Source: a virus (lineage: Duplodnaviria; Caudoviricetes). Taken from it: DNA of 64,000 bases. The translations under genes and the position numbers were made by a program. The stretch is taken from IMG/VR virus record IMGVR_UViG_3300020047_005985, positions 1-64,000 of that record. One strand, written 5' to 3'. Below are positions 26,238 through 52,984 of the stretch, one piece after another; the first letter of the stretch is position 1, and each line of letters opens with the position of its first letter. The notes below the pieces were generated by a model that ran no database searches, was not told the origin of the DNA, and worked only from the letters and a program-made list of their open reading frames with translations.

Positions 26238-27530
26238 TTATTCTATAATCTCTTCTCCGGTATCTAATTGCTTACTTTCCCATTCTAAAAACCTTTTAGA
26301 TTTAAGTTTATAGGCAATTTTACTAGTAGATTCATTTCTAATGCAAATACCTTCAGCAGGAACGCTATGAGTGCAGTATCGACAATCTTTTTCTAAGTAC
26401 ATGTCTTTCAGAATTTGCAATAATTCCACTGAATCAAATTCTCCTTTAGAAGATTGATTTATAAAATCTCCAATTTTACCATAATACAATTCTGGCACGT
26501 GATTTAAATTATATTCTTCGCAAAACAATTTAATATCGTTCCAAGACCATTCAAGTAATCCGTATGGTTCTTGTGAAGTAATTCTATAAATCAAAAACTT
26601 ATATTGTCCAGGTAAACAACCATAACCATATCCTTTTTGAATCATTTTCTCTCCAGTATAACCTACTATCTCACCATAGATCGTATAACCTTCAAACAAA
26701 CAGGGCTTTACATCCTCGAATACTTTACCCCAAATATCAGAATTATAAAATCCTTGTTCTTTAGTATGATATCTATCTTCAACATGTTTAATTACTGTTC
26801 TAGAAGAATACATTTTTTTATACTCTTCTGTAGAAACATTGGATCCAAAAAACATTTTAATCTTTTCCCAAATAGATAATTTTCTTTTAGTTAAAAGATT
26901 GGAAAATACTGCTGAAGTACCATGCCATTTATCCGTAATTACAATAGTGTTTTCTGGATTATTAAATCTCCAGACATTATCTTGTAATTTAGAAGTAGAA
27001 TAATGAAAGTTAAATTGACCAGGAATTAAAATATCTGAAATTTTTGGGCCTTTAGGTTTACCTTGTCCTTGACCAGATCTTACTTCTTTAATTTCAGGAA
27101 CATATTTATTACAAATAACTATTCCGTCTAAAGTATCGAATTTTTCGTCTATACAATATGCACATCGTTCTTCAGGAACATCTAAAGCAATACAAACATC
27201 TTTTAAAGGTAATAAAATACCATCTGAAATCATACCTCTTAACTTAACAGCTTTCACACGTCTTGATTTAGAGATATAACCTACTTTAGTTTGATCTTCA
27301 TTTAACTCTCTGTCTTGATACATATTCATCTTAGATAAGATTTTATGATGTATCTGACACTCTACTGGAAAAAATATTTTAATATCTCCTTCTTTAGAAG
27401 ACATATCTGTAATAACATCATACCCGTTTACATTCCAAATCTGAAGTCTATCAGCATTTGGATGTTGTTTAGATTTTTCAAGTTTGACAATTTGAGCTAG
27501 GTAATTACTTTCTGTGGTTACGCTGAACAT
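26238..27530 (-). CDS. RNA ligase (Rnl2/DRB0094-like) with N-terminal OB-fold
   Basis: HPNADRL, VKLRG.ISDG, TDKWHGTS (motif I), YGEIVG, EGICIR, YKLKS. Confidence 0.88.
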   Translation of the reverse strand: MFSVTTESNYLAQIVKLEKSKQHPNADRLQIWNVNGYDVITDMSSKEGDIKIFFPVECQIHHKILSKMNMYQDRELNEDQTKVGYISKSRRVKAVKLRGMISDGILLPLKDVCIALDVPEERCAYCIDEKFDTLDGIVICNKYVPEIKEVRSGQGQGKPKGPKISDILIPGQFNFHYSTSKLQDNVWRFNNPENTIVITDKWHGTSAVFSNLLTKRKLSIWEKIKMFFGSNVSTEEYKKMYSSRTVIKHVEDRYHTKEQGFYNSDIWGKVFEDVKPCLFEGYTIYGEIVGYTGEKMIQKGYGYGCLPGQYKFLIYRITSQEPYGLLEWSWNDIKLFCEEYNLNHVPELYYGKIGDFINQSSKGEFDSVELLQILKDMYLEKDCRYCTHSVPAEGICIRNESTSKIAYKLKSKRFLEWESKQLDTGEEIIE

Positions 27531-32725: not shown

Positions 32726-35050
32726 TTATATATTTTTAATTATTTCTGCAACTGAAGAACAGTAAACAAAGTTTACATTCATTTCTTCAGTCATTGATTG
32801 AAACCACTTTTCTTCTTGAGTTCCTAACGTTACAAATACAATTACTGTTCCTACGGCTTTATCTGTCCTGAGCCTCTTTTTATAATACGATGTTTTAAAT
32901 CAGATGTCAACCTGAATCGTATTCTTACTTTTCAGTAAGGATTGGACTATATCTTTATTTGATTCATATGCCCAGTGATATCCGAATGAAATTCTTGGAT
33001 ATTTAGGTCTTTGTTTATGTTTTGAAACAGGATCTTTACAAATCTTAATAATTCCCCTTCTATAGAAACCCAATTCATTTTCTATAAGTTGTGCGTGATC
33101 CCAAATCTTGATAATTTCTCCATCAGTGGCAATTTGATAAATTTTCTTTTGGATAGATTTAGTATATGAATTAGAATATTTAATATTATACGTATCAAAA
33201 CCATCTATTTCGTATCTCCATACAGATCCCCCGACTGTCTTTCTACCTCTTCGTCCTCTGCAACAACTAGAAATGTGAGAATTAGATAAACCTAGCTCCT
33301 GTTCAATATTTGCAACACAGTCCCATAATTTAATAAATGTCCCGTCTTTAGCAAACTGTTTAATTTTAGAACCTAGTTGACCATCTCCGCCATTTGTAGA
33401 ATTTTTTAAATTTAATCCTTCGGATTTATATTTAGCAATATAATAAATCTCTTTTCTTTTTACTTCTTCAATTGTTTCAGCATGGTCAATAGGAGCAATT
33501 AATACTTGATCTTTGTTTATAATAACTTTATTAATCCAATTAATAACAGGCCAATTGAGTTTACCATATTGACTTTTTGCTTTATTGATATGTCTTTTCA
33601 ATCGAAGATTTAGAGAAGTTCCTGTGTAACCAATATACACTGGTGTTTGTGTTAAATCACTTTTACTGTAAAGTTTGTAGATTATATACATATTATTGTA
33701 TTTTGTGAAACACAAAGATACAATATATTGTATTCAATCTTTTTTAGTTTTTAATTTTTAAGAAAAATATGTTACCACCTTTTCCTTTTTGGTAAAATAA
33801 TATAAAATCAAATATCTACTGTTTCGGGAAATTTGACAGATTTCCCTACTCCCCTACAAAGGGGATAGTCTCTACACACGCCTGGATATTAATCCTGCTT
33901 GGCTCGGTATTCCCATATCATAATTATGACTTAGGGTTCACCGAATTAAATAGATATAGGCAAGCTTTTCACCTATCATTTGACTCCAATCCTTAACTTT
34001 AGAATAATATGCAAATAATACAATATTATCTAAATGAGGAATATTTTCACCTTGCTTAAGGATCTTATTACTACAAGTAAGTTTAGTCAAACCTTTTTTA
34101 AAATTATCCAAATCTTTAATGTAATTCTTATTTTGAGATACAATAGAAGTCTTGCATAATTCTAATAAAGTTTTACTATCTTGACCAAATACTAATGTCT
34201 TTCCTGGAAGTTCTAATAAAAGTCTTTTGGCAAATTTAATCTTACTTGGAAGTGAATATAGAAATCTAGCTCTACGAGTAGCAGTTTGTATTATTCTAAA
34301 CTCTTTAGCTTTTTTAGCTTGAGGAGTTTTAGTAGGTAAAAACATTACTTCTCTAAAATCTTTTTCAAGTTTAGCGTAACTTGCTAACTCAGTAGTATGA
34401 AAATCATATTCTTTAGTTTTAATGTGAATATTCTTTTCTAAAGCTTCTAGTTTATGCTGATACACAATAAACTTAATATCTCTGGTTGTTTTATTCTCAA
34501 TGCTTTCTTGTAAAGAATAAGTATAAACAACTGGACAGAATGTTTGCAAAAGATCAAACTTAGTTATCTCCTGTTCTTGTATCTCATAAATAGTTTTCCT
34601 ATCTATCGTAGCCGATAATCCCATTCTAGGAATTAGATTTTCATCTAATTTAGAGTTTTGAATAAATTTGAAATATTCAGTAGATAGACAATCATGGATC
34701 TCATCAAAAATAATAATGGTATTTTCTTGAGTAGTATTTGAAAAGTAATCCCAAATAGAATATTTATAAGCTGCTTGATAACAAGCAAACTTAAAGTGAT
34801 AATTTTCTAATGGGTTAATTCCATAAAACTCTTTATATTTCCTAGCGTCTTCTAATACAGTAGCTTCTCTAACCGTAGTTTCAGCTAGGAATAAAACATT
34901 ACTGCCTTTAGGCATAGTTAATATTGCTTTAAAAGCAGTAAATGTTTTACCCATACCTGTAGCAAGTTCTATTGTACCCATCTTCTCATTATCTAGCCAA
35001 ACTTGCATGGCTTCATTCTGCACCTGCTCTTTCTTTAAATTCTTCTCCAC
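32726..35050 (-). CDS. SF2 (DExH) helicase split by a group I intron; exons 35050-33971 and 32875-32726, about 409 aa spliced
   Basis: ATGMGKT, DEIH, LSAT; the splice GGT|AGG restores motif VI QMIGRLR, followed by VFVTLGTQEEKWF. Confidence 0.9.
32900..33691 (-). CDS. Intron-encoded GIY-YIG homing endonuclease with NUMOD1-like repeats
   Basis: IIYKLY..VYIGYT..RLKRH, NSTNGGDG, two IKQF/IYQI..DG..IK.W repeats; likely start ATG 33691. Confidence 0.88.
   Translation of the reverse strand: MYIIYKLYSKSDLTQTPVYIGYTGTSLNLRLKRHINKAKSQYGKLNWPVINWINKVIINKDQVLIAPIDHAETIEEVKRKEIYYIAKYKSEGLNLKNSTNGGDGQLGSKIKQFAKDGTFIKLWDCVANIEQELGLSNSHISSCCRGRRGRKTVGGSVWRYEIDGFDTYNIKYSNSYTKSIQKKIYQIATDGEIIKIWDHAQLIENELGFYRRGIIKICKDPVSKHKQRPKYPRISFGYHWAYESNKDIVQSLLKSKNTIQVDI
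33713..33720 (-). promoter_or_regulatory. Bacteroidota-type -7 promoter box for the intron HEG
   Basis: TATCTTTG (TAnnTTTG) about 20 nt upstream of the HEG ATG, with TTG further upstream. Confidence 0.55.
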
Positions 35051-38997: not shown

Positions 38998-39068
38998 GGT
39001 GACTAACAAGAATCGAACTTGCACTGTTGGAACCACAAACCAACGTTCTACCGTTAAACTATAGTCAC
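38998..39068 (-). tRNA. tRNA-His(GTG)
   Basis: GTGACTA/TAGTCAC acceptor, C discriminator, loop TT-GTG-GT, TTCGATT T-loop. Confidence 0.85.
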
Positions 39069-39070
39069 AG

Positions 39071-39144
39071 TGGAAGAAGTTAGATTCGAACTAACAACCA
39101 CAGAATGATGGAATCTGCTGCTCTACCAATTGGCATACACTCCC
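39071..39144 (-). pseudogene. Degenerate tRNA-like element (9-nt anticodon loop TTCCATCAT)
   Basis: TTGGTAGAGC D-region, GCAGA/TCTGT stem, GTTAG-TTCGAAT-CTAAC T-arm, weak acceptor stem. Confidence 0.55.
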
Positions 39145-39202
39145 AGTAGTTTCCTGCTACATATACCCTAGTAAACAGGAAACTTTTGTAATTACTCGCA
39201 TT

Positions 39203-39317
39203 CATCTGTTTTTATACTTAAATTCAATGCTCTACCACTGAGCTATACGTCCGTAGTTAAATAAGTAATAGAGGACGTAAGAAGAATTGAACTTCTGACC
39301 TTGAGTTAGAACAGATG
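39203..39317 (-). ncRNA. Circularly permuted tRNA-like RNA (T-arm, loop-closed acceptor stem, D-arm; ends paired in place of the anticodon arm)
   Basis: CATCTGTT..CTCAA-GGTC-AGAAG TTCAATT CTTCT-TACGTCC-[20 nt]-GGACGTA-TA-GCTC AGTGGTA GAGC-A-TTGAA..AACAGATG. Confidence 0.8.
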
Positions 39318-39424
39318 GCTTTCAAAGATGACTAAAACTAAAGCTTGACTCACAAAACTATCTACTAAAAGTAAATACCATCATTTTGTAAGACTAATGC
39401 TAAAGTTATAAAGAGTCAATATTC

Positions 39425-40180
39425 TTAAAATAGAAATTCAAGTACCTTGTTTCCAAGATCAGATTCTTGACTTTCTATTGTATTTGCATTTTCTAAAGCT
39501 GCAATAACAGCTTTATATAAATTATCATATTTGGCTAAAATAATAGCTCGTTGACGAGTTGTGTACTCCCCTGAGTATTCTTGAGCTGTATAGGAACCAA
39601 TATTTACTTGCGTAGATTTTTCACCTACAATTGGCTGACGACTTTTATCTGGATGCGGATCAACTAAAATATAACTTTCCTTAATTGTGGTTTTTGAAAA
39701 ACCTTCATCAATTGGACTTTCATAAATCTCACGTCCCTCATGTTCTCCATTTGTTGATTCTTTCCAGATTACAGATTCTTTTCTGATTGGAAGTTCATGA
39801 ATCAAACTTTTAATTTTACCGTCCAAAATAGACTTGAGTCTTAAAAGTTCCAGGGTAGTGTAAGTTCCCCAATTTTTTCCATCTACAACTAAATCAGAAG
39901 TTACTCCTGTTGCATTTGTTTTTTCAATACTGAATACAATATTGAAATAATCTTGAACATGAGTTTTAAACCAACTTAATTGTTCTCCAACAGTTGAAGC
40001 AACTGCTTCATATCCACGCTTACTAGGTTCATCTGCATACCCATCAATAGGAGTATATGTTTTTTGATAACCTTTAAATAATCCTTGTTTGTTTTTGAAT
40101 TTACTGAACATATCATCCAGCATTAAACTAAATCCTTTTTCCACCTTATCTCTAAGGCCAAGTTGTACGGCTAATTTCAT
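39425..40180 (-). CDS. Uncharacterised helical/coiled-coil protein embedded in the tRNA array
   Basis: 251 aa; FKGYQKTYTP, KTNA, TLELLRL, YSGE, AVIAALENAN motifs recall a widespread uncharacterised phage/bacterial family. Confidence 0.75.
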   Translation of the reverse strand: MKLAVQLGLRDKVEKGFSLMLDDMFSKFKNKQGLFKGYQKTYTPIDGYADEPSKRGYEAVASTVGEQLSWFKTHVQDYFNIVFSIEKTNATGVTSDLVVDGKNWGTYTTLELLRLKSILDGKIKSLIHELPIRKESVIWKESTNGEHEGREIYESPIDEGFSKTTIKESYILVDPHPDKSRQPIVGEKSTQVNIGSYTAQEYSGEYTTRQRAIILAKYDNLYKAVIAALENANTIESQESDLGNKVLEFLF

Positions 40181-40205
40181 TACTAAAGTTTAAATATTAT
40201 TGTAG

Positions 40206-40288
40206 TAGGGAGAGAGGGACTCGAACCCTCAAAGTCTAATGACCAAAGGGGCTTAAGCCCTTCGTGTTTACCATTTCACCACCTCCCC
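40206..40288 (-). tRNA. tRNA-Leu(TAA)
   Basis: GGGGAGG/TCTCCCT, AAGGG-CT TAA GC-CCCTT, long variable arm, TTCGAGT. Confidence 0.9.
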
Positions 40289-40606
40289 ATTATCTGTCTT
40301 TCCAGACTGTCACCATACGAAGTACTCTACCAAATTGATGTCTTTCCAACCTGTAAGACTCTTGCTATATTGACTCTAGCTATACTATATGGGTTTCTGG
40401 AATCGAACCAGTTTTATCTGGATGCGCTATTTTATCATTCTCTTTTAGGTTTCGCCATCTTGCACTTGTACTCAAGTTCCTAAAATCATTTGGGAATGAC
40501 CCAACCACTTCTTAGAACAATGGGATGTTTTCTACCATCTTTCCTTCAGACCTCTCTCAACTGAAGATTGTATAGTTTAGCTATACTCTATATGGATTAT
40601 TTGGTT

Positions 40607-40981
40607 TTAGGCTACTTCTTCAACACCAACACCTTGTAAAGCAAGGGCCTCGGCGAAATTGAAATCAAAATCACTTGCTGTTGCACGAACTGCGGATGTC
40701 AAAGGACTAATTGAAATAATTGGTTCTGTTGGGCGTGCCTCCGTAATTGTCACATTGCAAAGATATTCATTTCCTACTGAAATTCCTTTTTCAAGGTTTT
40801 TCATGTAGCAAATAGCAGAACGTTCAACTATTTCACCTTTATTATTGGTGAATTTCACAGCACCAACAACATACTCCTTACCGTTAACGTTTGTTTGTAC
40901 AGCTTCTCCAAGAGAAGTTACTGTAGCTTTGAATTGACCTTCAAATTGATTGAGTTCTGAATTGAATGTTAGATTGAACAT
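40607..40981 (-). CDS. Hypothetical protein, possible OB-fold ssDNA-binding protein
   Basis: Beta-rich 124 aa with an acidic tail. Confidence 0.5.
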   Translation of the reverse strand: MFNLTFNSELNQFEGQFKATVTSLGEAVQTNVNGKEYVVGAVKFTNNKGEIVERSAICYMKNLEKGISVGNEYLCNVTITEARPTEPIISISPLTSAVRATASDFDFNFAEALALQGVGVEEVA

Positions 40982-41012
40982 TTTAATTGAATTTATTAGT
41001 GAATTTATTAAT

Positions 41013-41351
41013 TTATAGTGTTTTTATGAACTGAGAATATTCTTCCAATTCTTTTATTTTTGTTTCTCGAATCTTTGGTTCATTAAAAGTTTTTAAGTGT
41101 CCTAATGCACATTTCATATCTTGATTTTGAAGCATACAAATTCTACTTACTAACCATCTTTGATTTCTAACTTTTCTTAATTCTTCTACAAACTTACGAC
41201 TACTTTTAGGTAGTTTTTCATTTTGTAAAAGATGAACCAACATTTGAAACTTTTCTTCCTCAAGTCTATGTTGATTTTCCCAATACTCTTTATGAGTATA
41301 AAATTCTTTTAATCCTTCAAAGATTTTAATAATTTCTTCTGTTGTTTGCAT
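41013..41351 (-). CDS. Hypothetical protein
   Basis: ORF. Confidence 0.5.
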   Translation of the reverse strand: MQTTEEIIKIFEGLKEFYTHKEYWENQHRLEEEKFQMLVHLLQNEKLPKSSRKFVEELRKVRNQRWLVSRICMLQNQDMKCALGHLKTFNEPKIRETKIKELEEYSQFIKTL

Positions 41352-42046
41352 TTTTTTTTCTTTCTTCCGTGATAATTTTCTCCTTTAAAACTATTTTCAT
41401 CAAATCCAGCTTGATCTCTTTTTAAGATATCTAATGCTTTTTGTTCTAATAGTTTTTCTTTTTGTTTTAATAACGCATTATTAAAAATATCCAGAGATTT
41501 TTGTTTCTGTAGTTTTTTATTAATACGATTATTTTGTTTAGATTCAGCTTGCTGTTTCCAAACAAGTTTTTTGTATAAAGGATCTTTTCTAGATTTAAAT
41601 TCTAAAACAGATCCATCATAAGATCTTTCATATTCATTTTCATTCCAAGGACGAATGTATGTAACCCATTTAAATTGTTTATGAATCCACTTTACCTTAT
41701 AATCTTTAGAATAAACTTTATACGACGATTTTATATTATATTGTCTTTTAGGTTTACAAATATTACCTTGACTATCAATAGAATAACTAAAGACGTAAAA
41801 ACTTGAATTATTATCAAATTCGTCTAAAAATAAATATTGCTGATATTTTGGAACTTGTTTACAATAATAACGAAAGGCCATATCAAATGATTTTCCAATA
41901 TTATTATATATAATACGTCGAATTCTTTTCCAAGTATTTATTCCTCCTACAGGATGACAATCACCGTAACTGTATGCATACCAAACGTCAGATCTACGCA
42001 TGGGTTCCTTAAAAGGAAGCTGTTCCAAATAATTAAAATTTATCAT
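41309..42046 (-). CDS. Basic hypothetical protein
   Basis: 245-aa Lys-rich ORF. Confidence 0.55.
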   Translation of the reverse strand: MINFNYLEQLPFKEPMRRSDVWYAYSYGDCHPVGGINTWKRIRRIIYNNIGKSFDMAFRYYCKQVPKYQQYLFLDEFDNNSSFYVFSYSIDSQGNICKPKRQYNIKSSYKVYSKDYKVKWIHKQFKWVTYIRPWNENEYERSYDGSVLEFKSRKDPLYKKLVWKQQAESKQNNRINKKLQKQKSLDIFNNALLKQKEKLLEQKALDILKRDQAGFDENSFKGENYHGRKKKKCKQQKKLLKSLKD

Positions 42047-42063
42047 AATAATTTAAATTTGAG

Positions 42064-42150
42064 CGGAGAACTAGAGAATCGAACTCTAACCGTGATTAAG
42101 CTGACTAACTTAGTAGATCAAAGTAACAAATCAATATTTACCTGCTCTCC
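42064..42150 (-). tRNA. Atypical tRNA-Ser-like element (possible ACT anticodon)
   Basis: GGAGAGC/GTTCTCC plus G discriminator; TAGAG-TTCGATT-CTCTA; elongated D-arm; weak anticodon stem around CT-ACT-AA. Confidence 0.5.
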
Positions 42151-42446
42151 AAAACTAGACTCTACCAACCTCCAAATTAATTTTGATAATATAAATCATG
42201 TTAGTTTAAGTTTTTAATATATCGTTATCATACATTGAAACGATAGTCTGTATCACCGTATCTAATGAATCTTTAATTATAACTGAATCAATTAAAGAAA
42301 ACCGAATAGCATACTTACCAGAACAAGTCACTATAAACCCAACAGGAACATTTCTTTCTAGACATGTTTCGGAAAAATGTTGTAACGCAATGGAAAGTTT
42401 ACCAATTGTATTCATTATTTCTTAATTAAAAAAATCTTATAAAATT

Positions 42447-42535
42447 TGGCGGAAGGCAAGGGAGTCCAACCCTTACAACGTTTTACCGTCCTAGCACTTT
42501 TCAAGAGTGTGTACCTCAGTCAACTGGGGCCTTCC
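42447..42535 (-). tRNA. tRNA-Ser(TGA) with encoded CCA
   Basis: GGAAGGC/GCCTTCC-G-CCA, CACT-CT TGA AA-AGTG, long variable arm; atypical D-arm and TTGGACT T-loop. Confidence 0.75.
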
Positions 42536-42760
42536 TATATTTAAAAATTAATCCTGTCCAGTTTCAGTCTGGAATAGAATTAATATAGTTTGATCTTACT
42601 TCAATAGCTTCTTGTTCAGTATTATATCTACCTAAAGATTTGCGCTGCATGATTTATATATTCGTTTCATTCCCTCGCAATAAAATATAAGTTGTTTCTC
42701 TAATTAGAAAGTACAACTTATAAAACTTTACTTATCCCTCGATATCACTGTCAGGATAAA

Positions 42761-43051
42761 TTATACTTCTACTGGAAATAGCTGTCTAAAATACATAGAC
42801 GCTACTTCTAGGCCAGATTCAAATCCTGCCAATTTATTTTTGGCATCTATAATACCTTGTAAATCAGCATTACGAATAGCCTGAGCCAATTCTTGTTGCG
42901 CTTTAGCAATACTTGCTTTTGTAGTAGCAATGCTAATTTCCCACTCTGATTTCTTGGTTTGAACTTTTAATAGCCGCTCCTCGAACAGGAGATCCTCTAT
43001 CGAGGCTGATAGTGAATCCAAATATGATTGGACTGCTTGTGCTTTCGCCAT
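42761..43051 (-). CDS. Small coiled-coil protein
   Basis: Ala-rich heptads; overlaps the upstream gene by 119 nt. Confidence 0.6.
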   Translation of the reverse strand: MAKAQAVQSYLDSLSASIEDLLFEERLLKVQTKKSEWEISIATTKASIAKAQQELAQAIRNADLQGIIDAKNKLAGFESGLEVASMYFRQLFPVEV

Positions 43052-43778
43052 TATTTATTATATTTAAATTGTTAGAATTTGTTTCTTCAGGAGATACTTT
43101 TTTAAGCATATTTCTAGTCCAGTTTACACAATATTCATTATTATTGAAATGTACCATCTTCGATCCATGATTAAACTCATTTTTTGAACAAGACCTTACA
43201 TTAGTAATTTTAAATTTTAATCCTATGTAAGCTATTCCATCAAAGAATCCAGCATCATCATTTTTGGCTATTACCTCAACAGTATCTCCTATCCAAATAT
43301 CATCTGAATCATTTTTTGATATAGATTGTTCTTTTAAATGACTTATATTTTTAACTCCAGCAAAAAAGTGTCCAAAAGAGTAATCTTTTCTTTTACCATG
43401 TGTGAGATCGTTTGTACTTGCTCCGTGTCCTTCAGTAAATAATTCTGAAAAAATTAAAACAGAATTATCATGAATATTAAACCCAATAATTTCAAAAATT
43501 AAATGAGGGAACCTAACATGATTTACTTTATCTCCAATTTTAAATCCACATATTTCTTCTTGAGGATACTTTTCAAAGAATATATCAAATTGTTTTTTAG
43601 TAAGAACTTTTTCCCAAAAAAGATCTCCCTCTATTGTTTGCCACCAATTAAAGCCATCTTTATATTTATCTGAATATATATCATAATCGAAAACATTAGG
43701 AGAATATTTTCTTCCTTGCTCTTCAACTCTTTCTTTTACTTTATTTTGTATTTCTATTGGGAAGTCTGAAAATTTCAT
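42933..43778 (-). CDS. Hypothetical protein
   Basis: 281 aa, GFNW..T.EG..FW motif. Confidence 0.6.
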   Translation of the reverse strand: MKFSDFPIEIQNKVKERVEEQGRKYSPNVFDYDIYSDKYKDGFNWWQTIEGDLFWEKVLTKKQFDIFFEKYPQEEICGFKIGDKVNHVRFPHLIFEIIGFNIHDNSVLIFSELFTEGHGASTNDLTHGKRKDYSFGHFFAGVKNISHLKEQSISKNDSDDIWIGDTVEVIAKNDDAGFFDGIAYIGLKFKITNVRSCSKNEFNHGSKMVHFNNNEYCVNWTRNMLKKVSPEETNSNNLNIINNGESTSSPIIFGFTISLDRGSPVRGAAIKSSNQEIRVGN

Positions 43779-43876
43779 AATATTTTATTTTTAAATCTGA
43801 TAAACAATAGGGACACGGATAACCGTTAATCCATCCTGTATTATTACATGGTTTACACATATTACTTTGATTTTTG

Positions 43877-43948
43877 TGACCCCAAGAGGGATCGAACCTC
43901 TATCTAGGGATTAGAAATCCCTTGCTCTATCCATTGAGCTATAAGGCC
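43877..43948 (-). tRNA. tRNA-Arg(TCT)
   Basis: GGCCTTA/TGGGGTC, AGGGA-TT TCT AA-TCCCT, TTCGATC. Confidence 0.92.
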
Positions 43949-43956
43949 TTGTATTG

Positions 43957-44028
43957 TAGCGAGTGAGAGAATCGAACTCTCATGAATAGGTCGAAAACCT
44001 ACTATCCTAACCATTAGATGAACCCGCC
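43957..44028 (-). tRNA. tRNA-Glu(TTC)
   Basis: GGCGGGT/ACTCGCT, GTAGG-TT TTC GA-CCTAT, TTCGATT. Confidence 0.9.
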
Positions 44029-44107
44029 AAAAATAGCTATCTAAAACTCAATTACTTGAGAAACTTCGCTATTTTAGTTTTTTACTACGCGTTTATGTAG
44101 TTTTAAT

Positions 44108-44231
44108 TTAGTTAGACAGGATTCGATACCTGCACACAACTACTTCACTTCTGATACCATAACAGGACTTATCGTTGGGCATTTTCATTGCTATCATCCT
44201 CTGGTTAGCGTCTATCTTCCGCCACTAACTA
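44108..44231 (-). ncRNA. tRNA-like RNA with expanded anticodon region
   Basis: TAGTTAG/CTAACTA acceptor, TGGCGGAAGATAGACGC D-arm, GCAGG-TATCGAAT-CCTGT T-arm, about 70-nt non-canonical middle. Confidence 0.65.
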
Positions 44232-44239
44232 ATTTAAAG

Positions 44240-44614
44240 TTACTTCAACATTGCTTTTAACTCATCTGCTGACATTGCTTCCAATTCAGCATCTTGTTTT
44301 CGAGCAATTAAATCCATAATTTTTTGATTGTGGATTTTATTTGCAGCAGCAGCTTGAGTTTCTTCTTGTTCTTTGATACGAGTATCAAGAATAGATGTTA
44401 CAATGGCAAGCCGCAATTCGTTTGCTTCTTGTTCTTTGGTCTTACGACCAGCCTTACGACGAGTAGATTTACCATAACCTTCTATGGTTTCAGTTAATTG
44501 CTCTTCATGAGTAACTAACATATCGAGATTAATATCCCACAATTGTTCGCAGGAAATAACCCCTCCTAAATGAAAACGGAGTTTAAGCCGTGAGGCTAAT
44601 TCAAATATATTCAT
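44240..44614 (-). CDS. Conserved phage coiled-coil protein, partner of the 721-aa gene
   Basis: MNIFELASRLKLRF..G.ISCEQLWD..QKIMDLIARKQD..L..MS.DEL. Confidence 0.7.
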   Translation of the reverse strand: MNIFELASRLKLRFHLGGVISCEQLWDINLDMLVTHEEQLTETIEGYGKSTRRKAGRKTKEQEANELRLAIVTSILDTRIKEQEETQAAAANKIHNQKIMDLIARKQDAELEAMSADELKAMLK

Positions 44615-44615
44615 T

Positions 44616-46781
44616 TTAAAATTTTATTTTAATTGTTCGTTTATGACTACCTGATAACTTCAATATTAACTCCTCGGAAATAGTCGAATTAAAACCCAAT
44701 CCACACAACTGTTTAGTTGCTGGTTCAAGTTTTGTAGTTTCACCTAATACTTCCATTACTTTACGATGTTCTAATAAATCAGAATTTAAGAACTCCGTAT
44801 GAAATGAACGTAAAGCAATATCAGATTTACAATTATCAAGCATAAACATGTAATGTTTGTTGCCTGTATTATTATCACCCCAAAAGTTAGGAGATAAGCA
44901 AACCAAGTTGACTTTATGGAATTGATTGGTATCAAGATTCCAAATCTTCGTAGAAGCAGATTGTGATTCTAAAATCTGACAATTATTTAAATCAGGAATA
45001 AATTCTACTTGTCCATTTTTACACAACAGTTTTCCCAATTCAACTGTTCCTTTATGACTAGCCTTAACAAATAAAGATGTGATTTCCCCAAGTATTTCAA
45101 CTTCAGCCGTAAAATCTGTTCGAACAGTCGGTCCACTATAATTATGAACAAACAATCTGTATTCACCATTTGGCATAACAGAAAGATTTGAATATGTCAA
45201 ATTTTCTACACGTTTTTCAGGTGGAAAATGACCATCACATCCTTGAGCATCCAAATCCAACATTCCTGATGATGGTTGCATACTACGTCTATTACTATAG
45301 TAAATTTCATTACCATTAGGCTCTTTACAATGTAAGTCGTAATCAGATGTTGTTTTTGGAAAGTGAATACTTACTCGAATAGGAGCTTCAATTTTACCAC
45401 CTCGATCTTTAACAGCATCTTTAATCATACTTTTACCTGCAAGATTACCATTATAAGTCCAACCAAAATTGTTAGACCATTTAAATGCTTTCTTACTGTC
45501 AGGATTATTTGCCGTATGCAATGCTACTAAGTTACCACTAAATCTATTTTCAAGAAAAGCTTCAATTGAAGCGCATGTTGGAAGAATATCCTTCATAAAC
45601 TTTTCAATAGAAACTTCTTCAATACCATCAAATTGACTACGTTTATGTTGAGTAGATGTAGATGGTGCAACTTTATCAAATACAGATGCTTGTTTAATAG
45701 TATCTGTGCCTACATTTTGGTGAAGAATTTCTGAGATGTTAATATCATCTAATGTAGAGAACCTACGATCAAATGATTCTTCGTATCCATTTTCTTCAAC
45801 AAACTTTTTAGCTTCCGCAATTTGTTTTTGACTAATAGGAGCAGTAGCTTTCATGTAATTAGCAGGATCAACTCGCTTATTCCATGTAAGTACAGCCTTA
45901 TTCAAATCTTCCCCCTGTGTTAATTCTACACAAAGAGTTCCAATTAATTCATTTCTAAATTTAGCAAATGGTAGATTGTTGGATTTAATCCAACACCAAT
46001 TATCCTTCTCTTTAGTTGGTACATCTTTGTATTCAGTTGCAAACTCAATAAACTTTTTAAGCTTATCTAAGTATGAATCACCATTCAACAAACTACCTTG
46101 TTGAATCAAATCACGCACTAACACTAATGTATCCAATGAAATTTCATCAAGACCTCTTTTGAATACATTTTTAGCATCACGATGATTACCTTGAATAGAT
46201 TCAACTGAGTTACTAGAAAAATCTACAAACTTTTTAGGAAGTATAGCATTAAAATGATAAAATGTATATACTTGACCTGGAGTAACTACACCAAATTTGT
46301 CAGCTTCTTCCTGAGTATAAATTTTGTTGCTTTTTTCAAAGCCTAATTTATATTCAGCTTGAGTTTTATTTGTAGATTCATAATTTAATAGTCTATTGAG
46401 AGTATCGTATGATTCTACAAATACATTTTCAATTGGATTATTCTTTAAAAGAAATGCTACATTGTTTGCAGGGCGAGAGTAAATATTATCAGACAGATCT
46501 ACTGTATCAAACATTGTTACAATCTCACCATTGACTAAAGCTACAATGTTACCATAACGATGAATAAAATTCTTGTCATGATTACATGTATGTTCAGTAG
46601 AATTTGGATCTCTGAATACAGGATCAGCTTCTTTAGTGAAACTTGAGATATACTTATCCCAAACTTCATGTCCAGAAATTTTAGATCTGAATAAAACAGG
46701 TTGTTCACACATAAATGCAAACTGCTGTTTAATTGCTTTGTTAAACTCTTGAAATTTCATATTTCGTTGACAGTACTGCAC
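44616..46781 (-). CDS. Large conserved phage protein with C-terminal YfaP/DUF2135-like domain
   Basis: VDPANYMK, FKWSNNFGWTYNGN, DYDLHC.EP.G.EIYY, LDLDA, VENL, GEYRLFVHNY, GLGF. Confidence 0.7.
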   Translation of the reverse strand: MQYCQRNMKFQEFNKAIKQQFAFMCEQPVLFRSKISGHEVWDKYISSFTKEADPVFRDPNSTEHTCNHDKNFIHRYGNIVALVNGEIVTMFDTVDLSDNIYSRPANNVAFLLKNNPIENVFVESYDTLNRLLNYESTNKTQAEYKLGFEKSNKIYTQEEADKFGVVTPGQVYTFYHFNAILPKKFVDFSSNSVESIQGNHRDAKNVFKRGLDEISLDTLVLVRDLIQQGSLLNGDSYLDKLKKFIEFATEYKDVPTKEKDNWCWIKSNNLPFAKFRNELIGTLCVELTQGEDLNKAVLTWNKRVDPANYMKATAPISQKQIAEAKKFVEENGYEESFDRRFSTLDDINISEILHQNVGTDTIKQASVFDKVAPSTSTQHKRSQFDGIEEVSIEKFMKDILPTCASIEAFLENRFSGNLVALHTANNPDSKKAFKWSNNFGWTYNGNLAGKSMIKDAVKDRGGKIEAPIRVSIHFPKTTSDYDLHCKEPNGNEIYYSNRRSMQPSSGMLDLDAQGCDGHFPPEKRVENLTYSNLSVMPNGEYRLFVHNYSGPTVRTDFTAEVEILGEITSLFVKASHKGTVELGKLLCKNGQVEFIPDLNNCQILESQSASTKIWNLDTNQFHKVNLVCLSPNFWGDNNTGNKHYMFMLDNCKSDIALRSFHTEFLNSDLLEHRKVMEVLGETTKLEPATKQLCGLGFNSTISEELILKLSGSHKRTIKIKF

Positions 46782-46852
46782 ACCTTACTGGTTTAGGTTT
46801 AATAATTCTCTATGTGCAACTTGAGAATTTTACTATTGGTATTTTAAAATAG

Positions 46853-46925
46853 TCAGGATGGATTGACTCGAACAACCGACCTCTTGCGTCCAATGCAAGC
46901 TATCTACCAACTGATATACATCCTG
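46853..46925 (-). tRNA. tRNA-Pro(TGG)
   Basis: CAGGATG/CATCCTG, CTTGC-AT TGG AC-GCAAG, TTCGAGT. Confidence 0.9.
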
Positions 46926-47056
46926 GAATTATGGGTATTCCAACCCACGCATTTAACTTGTTTTACATCAAAGATCTTTTGCCTGTAAAGCCTTTAGGAG
47001 CTTTCTGGTGCTAAATGTAAAACCTCGTTGCTTATTTTTTAAAATCTTAAAATTAG

Positions 47057-47207
47057 TAAGGGCAACTGGACTTGAACCAATAACCTCTGTCTAGTTCGGC
47101 AACTCCGGCAGGACTCTAACCTGCAACCTTCAGACCTGAGCCTGACGCTCTAACAATTGAGCTACGGAGTCAATGACAGCGCTCTATCCAAATTGAGCTA
47201 TACCCTT
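47057..47207 (-). tRNA. Outer tRNA whose anticodon loop is interrupted by a second tRNA
   Basis: AAGGGTA/TGCCCTT acceptor, GCTC/GAGC D-stem, CTGTC/GACAG anticodon stem, ATTGG-TTCAAGT-CCAGT T-arm. Confidence 0.8.
47100..47171 (-). tRNA. Inner nested tRNA-like element (6-nt anticodon loop CTCAGG)
   Basis: GACTCCG/CGGAGTT, GCTC/GAGC, TCAGG/TCTGA, GCAGG-TTAGAGT-CCTGC. Confidence 0.75.
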
Positions 47208-47298
47208 GTTTTCTTAATTAACTCCAGAGGATTTCTCCTATCTTGCACCACACATAAAAGTGTACTCGTTACTACTGGATATCTTTAATTAAGATTTG

Positions 47299-47370
47299 TT
47301 GACCCACTAGGATTCGAACCTAGAACCTTCGGCTTAAAAGGCCGATGCTCTACCATTGAGCTATAGGTCA
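47299..47370 (-). tRNA. tRNA-Lys(TTT)
   Basis: TGACCTA/TGGGTCA, TCGGC-CT TTT AA-GCCGA, TTCGAAT. Confidence 0.93.
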
Positions 47371-47608
47371 TTTTAGAATACCACTTAGGAAATCACCCTT
47401 TAGAAAAGACTTAGTGGCACGCCTTTAATTCCTTTACGTAGAATCAACGATTGTTTATTGGAAAAACAATAAAAATCCTCCAGCTTCACATGGCTGGCAC
47501 ACGCGATATTTATTTAACCGTTAAATATCTAAATCCGTTTATCTAGAATAAACTTAAGGAGTTAATCCGTTTAACTATACGACTATTTAACTCATAGTTG
47601 AGGATTTG

Positions 47609-47681
47609 TGGTGAGAGTTGGACTTGAACCAACGACTTTCGGCTTTTCAAACCGATACTCTACCAACTGAGTTACCTCACC
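47609..47681 (-). tRNA. tRNA-Phe(GAA)
   Basis: GGTGAGG/TCTCACC, TCGGT-TT GAA AA-GCCGA, TTCAAGT. Confidence 0.92.
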
Positions 47682-47964
47682 AAAAAATTTGAGAATTATG
47701 CGATCTTCGTATTGACTAAGACTATACACTAGATTTCCATTCTCTTTTCAATGTAAATTTGACTGGGATTACATATTCTCAAGGATTGCCTTTGCTTGAC
47801 CCATTACTCGCGAGATTATAAATCTCCAGTAACATCTTAATAGTGATATTGCATCAGATATTAAGCTAACTTAATTTTATTTACACAAATTACCTGTCAC
47901 TGTAAAATAAAACAGGATTATTGCAATAGCGGTAAAAGAAATCACCAATAACCAAGCAATAACT

Positions 47965-50900
47965 TTAGAAATTATTTCTTGTGTTTTTTCTGAAAATCGG
48001 TATTACTACTTTTGGTAATTTTGGTAATTTTAAATATTTATTAATGATTATATGTATAATCATTATAACACAACTTACACCAGTCGCAGCAAGTAAAACT
48101 TTACAATTGGATACTATTGATTCTAACAATTTATCAATCGTAAACACCTCGCAACTTGAACTTCCAAGCAAATGATTAATGTATGTTGTGATAATTACAA
48201 TCAAAGATACCATTAAGCAATATATTGCTGCGATAATTAAACTTACTTTTAAAATTATTTTTATATCTTCTTTCATAATTATTTAATCTGAAATATCGGA
48301 CTTACTGAAAGCGTCTTTTTCAACAAAATCAATTTTAGTATTCTTTCCTACGTTAAACGTAGAAGAGTTTTGGGTTTTACTTGCTGATTCAGGTGCTTTA
48401 CCTGTAATTTTTTTTACAATTTGTGACTGTTCAGGAATTTTGTTTTTTGTAGTTTGACCCACTATCTCCGTTTCTTCTCCTTCTTTTGTTTGAAAAATGG
48501 TATAAATCTTTGTCATGTTTTTTATAATTTGATTTTAGCACCCTTTCATAGTCACTCTCTGATACAATCAAAGCACTTTGAATTAGGGTCACGATATTTA
48601 AGCCTCTTTGTTTACATAAACTGATTTAAGCCGATTAGCATCCGGCTGCTTAATATCTTGCTGAGAACTCCCCATAGTATATAGTAACATATCTCATACA
48701 GTTACATCTATGTTGTATATTACTATACAATTTCTATCAGGGTTTAGATTTGTTTCCAATTGGTTTTATTTAATGACACTGTTGTGTACCTGCATAATGG
48801 TGGCGATGACCGCTTGGAGCAGTAAAAGTACCATTATGGTTTATGGTTACAGTGCCTGTTTGGGACTTAAAATTGTTATACATTGAGGTACGACGTAAAG
48901 CACGTCGTTGGCGACGAGACAATGTCATGGAATATCCATACTTATCTCGTTTTGATGCTCGTTCTTTCTTTCTAAGTTGACGTTTTGAAATTTCCAGGTT
49001 TGAACAATTCTGCTGCATGGGCCTCAAACCCTTTTTGTAAATCTTCTTTTTGAATTTCGATTGTCAGCATTTCAGAATTTTTTAAACATTTTTTCTCCAT
49101 TCTGGAGAGAAATCAAACAAGTTACTCCTCGCAGAGTACCAAATGAGCTATACGCCCAATCGGCAATACTGCACCAGATCTCTTCTTCCACTGTAAGAAC
49201 AGGTGGAATAAATCGCTTTTGTCCTTTGATGATTTTGTACTCACCTTTCTTACCAGTTATTTCTGTAACTGAAGAATTTGAGTGTGAACCAAACATCGAA
49301 GGATTGATCTTTTTCAACAAAGTTGACCTGTTGATAATAGTTTGATTGTTGGATTGATTCCGAGCAGCTTTATCATACTGCTTTTCAGAAACTTTGATTC
49401 CCATTCGTAGATCAAATCCATTAGCAAGTGCTGAAAATGGAGTTTGATTAGCATTTTCACCTACACTTAGTAGGCTATCCCCTCCTGTTCTAGTAATGGT
49501 TGCAATCCCATTAAGGTCAGAGATTTGTAGTTTAGTAAACATATATTTATAGAAGAATTTCTTCTGGTTTTACGTATGTAATACCTTTAGTGAAGCCCAC
49601 AAACATTGTGACTGTGGAACCTTCATTAATAGGTGCGTAAATTGGTCTTTTTGACTCGAATACCAATTTTGAATATTGTTTTTGGGTTTTTCGTATTTTA
49701 CGATTTACTCTGCTCATAATAAGTTGTTTAAAATTTAACAATATTTCAGGATTTAACTCCTGACTGCACAATTACTAATAAAGTTAATTACTCTTTATTA
49801 GTATAGGATTATATATCTGTTGCTGACCTTAGTCTCATTTAAACCCTACTAATGGGTACAACTTTACAATATATAAAACGCGAGTACGCAATCTCGCTGC
49901 CATCATTTGAGTGTAATGGTTATAACTCAAACTTATCCTGTTTACCTTTTACTTGAATTAACTCAAGTTTCAGATATAAGGCTTATACGGTCTATTTCTA
50001 GCCAATATTTTAAAGTTCTTTTTACAGTAGAACTTCGGAACTATTATCTTATAATAACTGTTACCATATTTTAGAAGTCTATGGTCTAACTTAATCTTTT
50101 ATACGAAGCTGTTCAACAGAACAACCTTTCAATTTCGCAATCTCTTCAAGTGTTACCTCAATTACTTGAAATTCTTGAATTTCACGGGCTTGTTGCCAAG
50201 TGGTAGTTTGAGTTTCCTTTTCAGCCTCTTCAAATGTTTCAGCATGTATCCAGGCAATATAATAACCTTGTTTGAATGCAATTACAACTCTTTTGACCCA
50301 TTCACTATTAGAATCACGAACTTCCATTACTCTTGGAAATTGAGATTCTACTTTTGACAATGATGGAGTTGGGTCAACTGGTAAATATCGGCCATCTTCC
50401 GTATATAAACATGTATCATACGTGGAAAAAATTACGTTAATCGGATAGATTGGATGATTGTTTATGCTAGATACTACACCATGTAGATGATGATAGTTAC
50501 AATAGACTTTATCGCCTATGTTAAAATTTTCCATACTGTAATCTTATGTGTGTGAATGACCGCAAGATGTACATTTGCGTACATCTTTTATTATAGGTGA
50601 ACCAACTTGTGATTGGGTTGATCCACGTTGACCAGCATCATTGTCAAAATCATTAGTTGTTACCAATGTATTTTGTAATGCTTGTGAATTCATCATTAAT
50701 CCACCACATTCAAAACAAGTGTTACGAATAATTTCTTGAATTATTTGTGATGAGACAAAAGATGGAAATTTCCAGACACTTCCATGTTCTCCTGATTCCT
50801 CAGGTATATAAATTCCACCAAGTCTTTCAAACGATAATTCAAAAGATTCGGTCGGTTTTAATTTAAAGATATTACCTTTAAACGTAACATATACAAAGTT

Positions 50901-52984
50901 TTGTGAAACTTTATAGTTATAATTTATCAATTGCATATCCGTTACAATTTAAAAAATGAAGTGAAAATATCAGATAAAACCAATAGAACCTGTACTAGTA
51001 GGCATTGATCTATTGGACAAACTCCTGATATACAATAAGAGAAATAATTCAGCTCCGTTGCTATAATTATTCTGTTACCGCAGTTTGTTACGGACTTATT
51101 TTTTTGCGTCTTCTTCTGCTTTTCTTTCTGCTCTTTTGCCTAAAATAGGTATAAGAGAAAAAAATGAGAAGAGGAATGCTACAATAAACACCTCTGTGGT
51201 TTCCATTGCTTGTGTAAGACTTCCATTAAAGTCTGTATAATAGCAATATAAAGCTCCACATAATGTGTATATTGATAGCATATAACATGCGACTTTAATC
51301 CAGAACCACATTAGTTAGGATTAATTTCGGTGTTCATAGGCACTCCTGTCCGCTTAGGAGTTTGGTTGCATTTGTCGTAAATAAGTACAACTACCACAAT
51401 CAATAAGATTGCAATAATTGTATTTACAACTATTTTAGTGAATTTGCTCATACATTTTGAAAAAAATAAACATCTGTTTTATCCAGTGATAAATCGACTG
51501 TGTATTAGTATGGAACTACAATGTAGAACTCACAACTATTTACAAGAACAGAAAAGAGATTTAAATAATAGTGTCATTGCAAGTTGTTCTATGAACTCAT
51601 ATACTTACATATATTTACATATTGCACTATTAAACCAATCAATGCTCAATGGTAGTAGAGTGATTGATAATCTATTGTTTATTTTTAATCTTACTGAGTG
51701 CGATTTACCTTTCAGTAAACTACGTTTCTTCCCATTGTTCCGCCTATCACGCGGTGGTTTTTGTGTCTCTAATCAGTAAGATTATTTTTTATTTTTGTTG
51801 TTTTCTAAAATATCCATTAGGGTTTACACCCATCTGAATAAGTCGTTCTTCAATAGTTCCTGTTACTGGAACTTGTTGAAGTATTTCTTCAATGGTACAT
51901 TCTGTTCCAATTTGGTCAAGGATAATATCCTCGTGAGGATATTCGTTATCTATTCTTTCAGGAATAGAAAACATCTTATCTGCACCTATAACGATAGATC
52001 CAGACGGCTCTTCAATTCCGCTAAGTGTTTCCAGCTTAAGGAATTTTGCTCTTCCTCTTGCTGGGATACGCAAGAAATACAATGTGACTGCATCTTCCGA
52101 TGAACATACCAACTGCCAATAAACAGGTAAATCAAAGACTGGTTTGTTTTCTTGAAATTCTATTTGTGGTAGAATTTCGGTCAATCTTAACATTTCTTCA
52201 TGGCTTACAAGCCGAAGAAAATTACCATTTGGGTTTGCAAACCAATATTGCTGTAATGTAGTTACAAGTAAATTTCCTCCTGCTGTTAGATAGAACTTAG
52301 CTTTGTCCAATAGATATGCAAGATGCATTCTATTGAATGCTTCCCAGGTTTCACATTCTCTGGATGGATTTTTTTGAATAGTTCCATCAGTATTTACAGC
52401 GTAACATGTATATGTTACATGAGTGTCGGTTGTTTCTTGAACGTAAGCATGGAGAATTTCATCTCCGAATTTTAGCTTGTACATAATACTTTTTATTTTT
52501 TGAATAATTGCCTACTCTTTTGAAGGATTTTTGGCATACTCCTTATAAACCCTCTGCACTCTGTTATAATCATCAATGATTTCATTCCTATCAATTAAGA
52601 TGGTGTATTAATTTCAACTATAGATTATAACAGCTTACCAGGGACTAGTGGGAATTAGAGTTAATAGGCAAAACACCCAATAAGAGTGACAAATCCTATT
52701 TACCTGCACTTCCGCAAGTGGAGATATTTGTTGCGGTATTTTTAAACATCAGATCAACGAGTATTATTGTCTCTATTGATCTTAAACTGGTGTTATATCC
52801 TTATACAAACCCAACCACAACTTGAGATGTAATCAATATTGTGTTGAATACAGAAAGCTCTACCTTCATACCATTTAAGGCAGATTTCGACAATACGACC
52901 TGATTCAGATCTTATTACTTTGTCAATAATCTCTGCTGGAATAGTAATCCCATTGAGATCATAGTCTTTATTATAGTCTTCCAT
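47965..52984 (-). other. Region of small early-type hypothetical CDSs (47965-48276 2xTM, 48283-48516, 48770-49027, 49072-49542, 49547-49771, 50091-50534, 50544-50936 Zn ribbon, 51096-51311 2xTM, 51789-52484, 52793-52984) separated by long hairpin-rich spacers
   Basis: Co-oriented ORFs with AT-rich leaders. Confidence 0.5.

Follow-up and report, generated by a model that had tools for sequence, protein, structure and literature searches.

The DNA analysed here, called the window below, is a stretch of 64,000 nt at the start of a virus record (IMGVR_UViG_3300020047_005985) that is complete, has direct terminal repeats and measures 108,241 bp. At 47207-47057 on its minus strand it contains a 151-nt gene in which a tRNA-shaped element is nested in the anticodon loop of a tRNA-Val. 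The G+C content of the window is ~29%, and the nearest named phages are Cellulophaga phages, with ~51% protein identity on one large gene only. The tRNA genes of this phage all lie on the minus strand within 38998-47681, and no second tRNA-Val gene was found elsewhere in the genome. The 5′ part of the outer tRNA-Val (47175-47207) carries the acceptor strand AAGGGTA, the D arm GCTC/GAGC and the anticodon-stem strand CTGTC, and it is followed by the trinucleotide ATT (47172-47174), which abuts the first base of the inner element on its 5′ side. The inner element of 72 nt, including G73, occupies 47100-47171. After it come CCG (47097-47099), which stands in place of the encoded CCA tail found in relatives, and AACTA (47092-47096), the first three bases of which are the valine anticodon AAC; both assignments rest on the parse of five loci described below. 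The 3′ part of the outer tRNA (47057-47091) consists of GACAG, the variable loop AGGTT, the T arm ATTGG-TTCAAGT-CCAGT, the acceptor strand TGCCCTT and the discriminator A73 at position 47057. Hence, the outer anticodon loop as encoded reads ATT, the 72-nt tRNA-like sequence (47171-47100) and CCGAACTA, and it is split by 75 nt.

Both parts of the gene were compared with what is expected of a tRNA. The outer sequence folds into a four-stem cloverleaf in which all 21 pairs form, with GG in the D loop and TTCAAGT as the T loop, and ARAGORN, when introns were allowed, gave it a score of 107.5, as compared with 113-122 for the three adjacent tRNAs. With default settings, which do not allow introns, the same program reported one untyped tRNA and missed the tRNA-Val. 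A35 and C36 are the main bases by which valyl-tRNA synthetase recognizes its tRNA, and A73 is also an identity base; all three are present in the outer tRNA, with AAC placed directly after the tail of the inner element. The inner element matched the Rfam tRNA family RF00005 with 57.6 bits (gathering score 29, E 8e-10), and its acceptor, D, anticodon and T stems have 7, 4, 5 and 5 bp, all 21 of which form. Its anticodon loop, CTCAGG at 47140-47135, has 6 nt, for which reason ARAGORN assigned no type to this tRNA and gave it a 2-base anticodon. In the D loop, AATTGTTA, G18 is followed by T, and the T loop, TTAGAGT, carries A at position 56. In the two cloverleaves together 42 of 42 base pairs form, unlike in a tRNA pseudogene, where mispairs in the stems and losses of conserved loop bases accumulate. 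These data agree with the sequence-only reading of this locus, which had described the outer acceptor, D arm, CTGTC/GACAG stem and T arm as intact, had placed the inner tRNA with its 6-nt anticodon loop and TTAGAGT T loop at 47171-47100, and had concluded that the inner and outer sequences are not a simple tandem duplication.

The sequence-only reading had also named misassembly as a possible source of this layout. The junctions were compared with Logan contigs from four public runs of three studies (wastewater and activated sludge), one of which is possibly the sample that gave the window; the runs labelled RNA-Seq were available as contigs only, and these are probably DNA. One contig (X2 record 12, 47088-47237) covers the whole insert and both junctions, extends 12 letters past the 3′ junction and has 0 differences from the window. 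Two others span the 5′ junction (X7 record 25, 47106-47261, with 0 differences, and X4 record 21, 47109-47364), and a fourth spans the 3′ junction (X1 record 2, 46714-47179), with 5 differences, all at or below 46823. Inside the element there are zero differences in any covering contig. Because the contigs agree, the 6-nt loop of the inner element is real in the population and did not arise by a sequencing error. Moreover, four independent assemblies of related phages have the same layout, and an assembly artefact or a chimera is thus contradicted by the data and highly improbable. The only contig joint listed, from 47086 to 47332 (side 24), seems to be a chimera that connects T arms from other organisms and was rejected. 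Among the joints listed there was none with the form of a spliced outer tRNA, which counts neither for nor against splicing. In a separate observation, the X1 wastewater strain differs from the window by ~5% in the flanks (33 differences in 47844-48458), and by zero positions in 46824-47179, a segment that takes in the tRNA-Pro, a spacer of 131 nt and the larger part of the nested tRNA. This identity may reflect mosaic recombination rather than constraint, or else constraint that includes the spacer.

To find the same locus in other phages, relatives were located through the neighbouring DUF8224 protein (721 aa, encoded at 44616-46781), at 53-84% identity, and the contigs that encode it were fetched. 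Four of them contain a nested homologue: L309 (3037-3184; DUF8224 protein 84% identical), L318 (4513-4661; 70%), L322 (1365-1515; 71%) and L006 (3790-3938; 53%), the last of which is a complete record. These are related uncultured phages from four different samples and assemblers, and in each of them the nested gene shares the strand of the DUF8224 gene and lies 60-1400 nt upstream of it, in the same genomic slot. The nested tRNA is absent from six other relatives (L310, L311, L312, L316, L324 and L325). Hence, the locus is not unique, as had been considered possible from the window alone. A further nested locus (L329/L333) has a tRNA-Ile(GAU) within a tRNA-Val(CAC), with GTTA as the 5′ piece of the loop.

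Other searches for the element gave no close match. Named phages searched with it returned generic tRNA-Lys matches only, so that no named relative has the element. Exact patterns of the inner T arm and acceptor and of the outer T arm, applied to IMG/VR, returned nothing or unrelated tRNAs with a common T arm, and a scan of IMG/VR for intron-free orthologues of the outer tRNA returned tRNA-Ile, tRNA-Gly and tRNA-Thr only, with no such tRNA-Val. A metagenome scan gave no match like the nested element, with a pattern the first half of which also fits ordinary tRNA D loops. The typing of the inner and outer sequences by similarity to 909 phage tRNAs led to no decisive assignment. A scan of a genome collection with the 5′ junction gave one match, on a Planctomycetota contig, which was rejected as a chance match since there is no tRNA there.

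To analyze whether the two cloverleaves are maintained, the five loci (the window, L309, L318, L322 and L006) were split by length into their structural parts. Every one of the 210 stem cells (42 pairs in five loci) is a Watson-Crick or G-U pair, and compensatory double changes were observed at 14 outer and 12 inner pairs, out of 21 each. The five outer tRNAs all retain the canonical G18 G19 of the D arm and T54 T55 C56 of the T arm. The identity of the outer part to the window is 81% in L309, 74% in L318, 66% in L322 and 56% in L006, which follows the identity of the neighbouring protein (84, 70, 71 and 53%, respectively), while the identity of the inner part (58, 67, 81 and 73%) does not. 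The simplest reading of these data is that the outer gene would have been inherited together with the rest of the phage genome in its nested form, with selection acting on its fold, and that the inner tRNA was probably exchanged, or changes faster, in at least one lineage. These counts are not those of a decaying locus, a condition under which the sequence-only reading would have been refuted. Because four relatives keep the layout with every helix of both tRNAs, the comparison indicates that the nested gene is a maintained two-in-one tRNA gene.

An alternative explanation is that a selfish or accidental insertion, in which a cassette of tRNA plus CCA kills tRNA-Val genes, created each of these loci, and that the outer tRNAs are intact only because the insertions are recent, with decay still to come. 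Such an origin could account for the mismatch of the inner identity with that of the outer tRNA and the neighbouring protein, seen best in L309, where the inner part is 58% and the outer part 81% identical to the window. It would also fit the patchy distribution of the element among the relatives and the ACC or CC that precedes the inner tRNA in L309 and L006 and repeats the (A)CC of the tail, like a target duplication. Outer tRNAs that have apparently decayed, as judged from their sequences, are present in three further contigs: L319 (913-1040) has a complete tRNA-Gln with CCA, followed by a good 3′ half of a tRNA-Val, the 5′ half of which lacks the D arm, while L327 and L328 have a tRNA-Val(UAC) with CCA, followed by a 3′ half only. 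These decayed copies can be counted for the insertion, and they also make the five perfect outer tRNAs more telling, since they show that intactness is not automatic. The absence of any mispair in the 105 outer stem cells, across phages with such divergent neighbouring proteins, speaks against this explanation, and the divergence of the outer tRNA in step with that protein implies that the outer gene has been nested for a long time and that its changes were compensated. The insert is at the same point in five syntenic loci, which independent events could produce only through a highly specific mechanism, and the element has no linked nuclease or integrase. The same insertion point, the common slot and the agreement of the outer tRNA with the neighbouring gene thus argue against independent recent entry, and we consider this explanation improbable.

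The inner tRNAs differ among the five loci in what they could decode. The inner anticodon loop is CTTACAG in L309, with the anticodon UAC (Val), and CTAATAA in L006, with AAU. In L318 (inner tRNA at 4547-4621) it is CTTCAGG and in L322 (inner tRNA at 1400-1475) TTTTAGG, with the nonsense anticodons UCA and UUA, respectively, and G at position 37 in both. These four loops have 7 nt. The loop of the window is 6 nt long, lacks the arrangement of U33 and a purine at position 37 within 7 nt, has no anticodon, and equals the L318 loop minus one T. The closest homologue of the window inner tRNA is that of L322, with 81% identity. The inner tRNA of the window has also G73 where the relatives have A73 and CCG where they have CCA, yet none of its pairs is lost. 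Stop-codon reassignment is not apparent in this phage, which uses the standard code: reading through TGA or TAG does not lengthen its longest reading frames, and 21 of 60 open reading frames (ORFs) end with TGA. The phage would thus have no use for a suppressor like the closest homologues of this element, which carry UUA and UCA. Because three positions needed for decoding or charging are changed while the 21 pairs are kept, the inner element of the window looks like a former tRNA that would now be kept only for its shape, that is, a tRNA-shaped intron.

The elbow of the window inner tRNA is also unusual. The pair G19:C56 is missing from it, and T after G18 and A56 could replace that pair by another of the Watson-Crick type. 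The combination of T and A recurs in L309 and is reversed in L006 (A after G18 and T at position 56), while L318 has an A/A mismatch. A canonical phage tRNA-Asn(GTT) in L068 (538-613) shares the D arm (with the loop AATTGTTA) and the TTAGAGT T loop of the window inner tRNA, and in this tRNA U19 and A56 would take the place of G19:C56.

The boundary between the inner tRNA and the outer loop follows a rule at its 3′ side. In all five loci the inner tRNA ends with N73-CCA (CCG in the window), and the five bases after this tail are AACTA, GACAA, TACTA, TACAT and AACAA. The first three of them are always NAC, which is a valine anticodon, so that A35 and C36 are invariant while the wobble base varies, and A73 is present in four of the five outer tRNAs. 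The insert, with a length of 75-83 nt, is thus located directly 5′ of the wobble base. The CCA is encoded after the inner tRNA, even though the other tRNA genes of the window lack it, which suggests that the encoded CCA sets the 3′ cut.

A candidate for the enzyme that could reseal the outer tRNA is encoded by the minus-strand ORF at 26238-27530 (430 aa). This protein matched the RNA_ligase family PF09414 with 39.6 bits, above the cut-off of 27, and the PHA02142 OB domain PF21189 with 35.4 bits, and it is the sole match to PF09414 in the 108-kb genome. A search for Rnl1 (PF09511), run without a positive control, gave no match. The ligase gene is also present in the complete L006 record, and we infer a link between this ORF and the nested tRNA. 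The co-occurrence of ligase and nested tRNA showed no clear pattern among the few complete records.

Together, the layout, the boundary and the ligase gene lead to a possible pathway of maturation, in which the inner element is excised by host enzymes that process tRNA ends, and the outer tRNA-Val is resealed by the phage RNA ligase. RNase P leaves a 3′-OH on the leader, RNase Z-type enzymes leave a 5′-phosphate on the trailer, and ATP-dependent RNA ligases of this type join 3′-OH and 5′-phosphate ends. The array would be transcribed on the minus strand, and the host RNase P would cut 5′ of the first base of the outer tRNA and 5′ of the first base of the inner one. A 3′ tRNA-processing endonuclease would then cut at the tail of the inner tRNA and free the inner molecule. 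The two outer halves would be held together by the 12 bp of the acceptor and anticodon stems, with a 3′-OH and a 5′-phosphate facing each other at 33/34, which means that excision by RNase P and RNase Z would leave exactly the ends that such a ligase can join. Sealing of this nick would give tRNA-Val(AAC), which matches GTT, the commonest valine codon of the phage (23.4 per 1000 codons); the remaining phage tRNAs likewise read preferred codons ending in A or T. We regard this pathway as having about equal chances of being right and wrong.

Several observations weigh against this pathway. The anatomy, the soundness of the assembly, the conservation, the covariation, the fixed 3′ boundary and the ligase gene are read directly from DNA, while the cutting and joining are steps at the RNA level that we infer from them. 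The pairing statistics would be the same if intact cassettes had recently and independently entered intact tRNA-Val genes, and the inner identity is not congruent with the phage tree. The 5′ piece of the loop is not fixed: it is ATT, ACC, ATC, CC and ATC in the five loci, and its length is 2-4 nt when the GTTA of L329/L333 is included. Position 33 would be C in four of the five loci, which is odd for a tRNA that decodes. Removal of the inner tRNA and CCG from the window would leave an 8-nt loop, AUUAACUA, with U at position 37, and a loop of 7 nt would result only in L006. A shift of the RNase P cut through a -1/73 pair, which would give a 7-nt loop, was considered and rejected, as it works in the window only (U-1 with G73) and fails for the relatives. 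As regards the ligase, the L333 record, which is 96% complete, has a nested tRNA and no PF09414 ligase, while one of five control relatives with no known nested tRNA has such a ligase. The catalytic lysine motif, K-x-(D/H/N)-G, was not detected in the ligase by the narrow pattern K-x-D/N-G, which omits the K-x-H-G of T4 Rnl2, and the search of PDB sequences with the ligase matched no solved structure. Of the proposal made from the window alone, that the inner tRNA is an intron removed by RNase P and 3′-processing enzymes with the halves joined by the phage ligase, the conserved layout, the CCA or CCG before the valine anticodon and the presence of a fitting ligase ORF thus point in its favour, while the loop left after excision, the variable 5′ piece and the lack of a PF09414 ligase in L333 do not fit.

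Alternatively, the outer tRNA could be a carrier that is never religated, in which a structured leader and trailer stabilize, time or guide the release of the inner tRNA, as in engineered tRNA scaffolds, and the outer halves are then discarded. In the window, where the inner tRNA has no decoding loop, the whole element would then be a non-decoding tRNA mimic, for example a decoy for host factors that bind or cut tRNAs. The sequence-only reading had also proposed a double-elbow tRNA mimic, for which the present data give no support and against which they do not speak either. The non-canonical loop after excision, the variable 5′ piece and a ligase that does not strictly co-occur are in favour of such a carrier, and the nonsense anticodons UUA and UCA of the L322 and L318 inner tRNAs are of a kind whose release might need control. 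The same array has also tRNA-like elements with altered anticodon arms, namely the one at 39071-39144 and the YrlA-like match at 39199-39318. However, a carrier has no need for the invariant A35-C36, for a varying wobble base directly after CCA, or for A73, nor does it need the canonical D and T arms that the five outer tRNAs keep, and no target of a decoy is known. Therefore, we consider a carrier without religation unlikely, and the excision of the inner tRNA followed by resealing of tRNA-Val is the reading with which the known systems are compared below.

Stand-alone tRNA genes with enlarged anticodon loops were also observed in the relatives. Loops of 8 nt are present in L311 (4818-4892, CTATTTAA), L310 (4859-4935, TTCCATTT), L309 (2660-2734, TTCCACTT) and L312 (4132-4208, TAATGAAT). 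The L311 loop corresponds to a tRNA-Lys(UUU) loop with one additional base at the 33/34 junction, which is the site of the nested insert, and the L310 gene is a homologue of the outer tRNA of the window in the same slot. In L320 (6941-7016) a stand-alone tRNA-Val-like gene has a 9-nt loop (ACCAUACAA / ACCATACAA), and this gene, which is a single sequence, may be an empty or emptied insertion site or a splicing scar. HNH or GIY-YIG genes were found near the tRNA arrays of L309, L312 and L325.

The closest precedent for the nested gene is in the Lak megaphages, where the intron of a tRNA-Thr(TGT) "itself may encode a tRNA" and the introns were called enigmatic (Devoto et al. 2019; PMC6784885). 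The two cases share a tRNA-like insert in the anticodon loop of a phage tRNA, conserved among related phages. They differ in that the Lak genes belong to 540-kb Prevotella phages with an alternative code, while the gene described here is a tRNA-Val of a 108-kb phage of another lineage with the standard code, has the insert before the wobble base, and in the window has an inner tRNA that has lost its decoding loop. The Lak report contains a remark only, and no covariation analysis, boundary rule or mechanism. Full-text literature searches returned no further paper in which one tRNA gene lies within another. What is new here is the lineage-wide test of conservation, the boundary rule and the reduction of the inner tRNA to an intron, and this kind of gene has barely been described before.

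A generic scan for two T loops 22-40 nt apart returned mostly a tRNA with a fragment, or sequences with no tRNA call, and a few real intron-bearing tRNAs of another type. In unrelated IMG/VR phages, L123 (4972-5124) has a tRNA-Phe(GAA) with CCC in a tRNA-Arg(UCU), the removal of which restores the canonical loop CTTCTAA, and L087 (4995-5145) has a tRNA-Ile(GAU) with CCA inside another tRNA with an oversized loop. In L168 (3753-3905), L080 (6371-6536), L147 and L111 the tRNA anticodon loops are split by 80-140-nt inserts, which consist of a hairpin and an acceptor/T-arm minihelix followed by CCA, unlike the full cloverleaf described here; L168 reads as a tRNA-Thr(UGU) with the insert after position 37.

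The proposed resealing step can be compared with the repair of tRNA in T4 infection. The bond 5′ of the wobble base (33/34) is cut by PrrC and resealed by T4 RNA ligase 1, and the bond sealed by this phage enzyme is at the position of the 3′ exon boundary described here. T4 tRNA repair, as outlined in PMC2610378, proceeds through the PrrC cut, healing by Pnkp and sealing by Rnl1. The tRNA in T4 infection is broken by a nuclease of host defence, and its ends need healing, while here the break would result from the excision of a tRNA-shaped insert, and the ends would already be ligatable. The ligase is also different from T4 Rnl1, as it is a PF09414 protein with an N-terminal OB domain.

The nested gene also has features in common with other intron-containing tRNA genes. 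Like group I introns, the insert is located in the anticodon loop of a bacterial-type tRNA gene and would have to be removed at the RNA level. In contrast, group I introns are self-splicing, longer than ~200 nt and have a P1-P9 core, whereas the insert is a cloverleaf of 75-83 nt, and no group I intron was matched between 38800 and 48000, the region of the tRNAs, with E values of up to 1. The pathway resembles the processing of archaeal and eukaryal bulge-helix-bulge introns and of split or permuted tRNA genes in its use of protein enzymes, an endonuclease and a ligase. The bulge-helix-bulge itself (two 3-nt bulges and a 4-bp helix) was absent by inspection, as the two junctions lie on either side of a 7-bp helix and have 3 and 8 nt unpaired, and the insert is at position 33/34 and not at 37/38. 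We know of no splicing endonuclease in bacteria. Finally, in engineered tRNA scaffolds, reportedly introduced by Ponchon and Dardel, a foreign structured RNA is said to replace the anticodon loop of a tRNA. The likeness is in the acceptor and T arms, which continue to guide processing and to stabilize the RNA, and the difference is that the arrangement here is natural and conserved, with a cargo that is a tRNA with its own processing signals.

Some other features of the window were noted. The region 39199-39318 on the minus strand, which the sequence-only reading had flagged as a circularly permuted tRNA-like RNA, gave a sub-threshold match to YrlA (Y RNA-like; 33.7 bits, gathering score 69, E 2e-4) and adjoins the minus-strand ORF 39425-40180, which encodes a 251-aa DUF7873 protein (116 bits). 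Bacterial Y RNAs mimic tRNAs. The tRNA-like gene at 39071-39144 on the minus strand (Rfam, 34.7 bits) has a 9-nt anticodon loop, TTCCATCAT, and was found by ARAGORN only when a 2-nt "intron" was allowed. A DUF805b RNA motif was matched by Rfam at 52509-52544 on the minus strand, with 42.4 bits as compared with a gathering score of 35.6. The minus-strand ORF 32900-33715 contains a GIY-YIG nuclease domain (29.7 bits) and is likely a free-standing homing endonuclease.

To our knowledge, bacterial-type tRNA genes have been found with self-splicing group I introns only, and the splicing of tRNAs by proteins alone is seen as a trait of archaea and eukaryotes. The nested genes raise the possibility, which we hold tentatively and judge somewhat short of evenly balanced, that this phage lineage uses a third, purely enzymatic route of tRNA splicing, in which the intron is a tRNA or a former tRNA and a repair-type ligase reseals the exons. 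If this is true, RNase P, a 3′ endonuclease and a repair ligase would together act as a splicing machine, and phage RNA ligases would gain a housekeeping role beyond countering the anticodon nucleases of the host. One gene would then give two tRNAs, or a single tRNA that needs the ligase for its production. Such an organization would also explain why tRNA finders miss or mislabel these genes.

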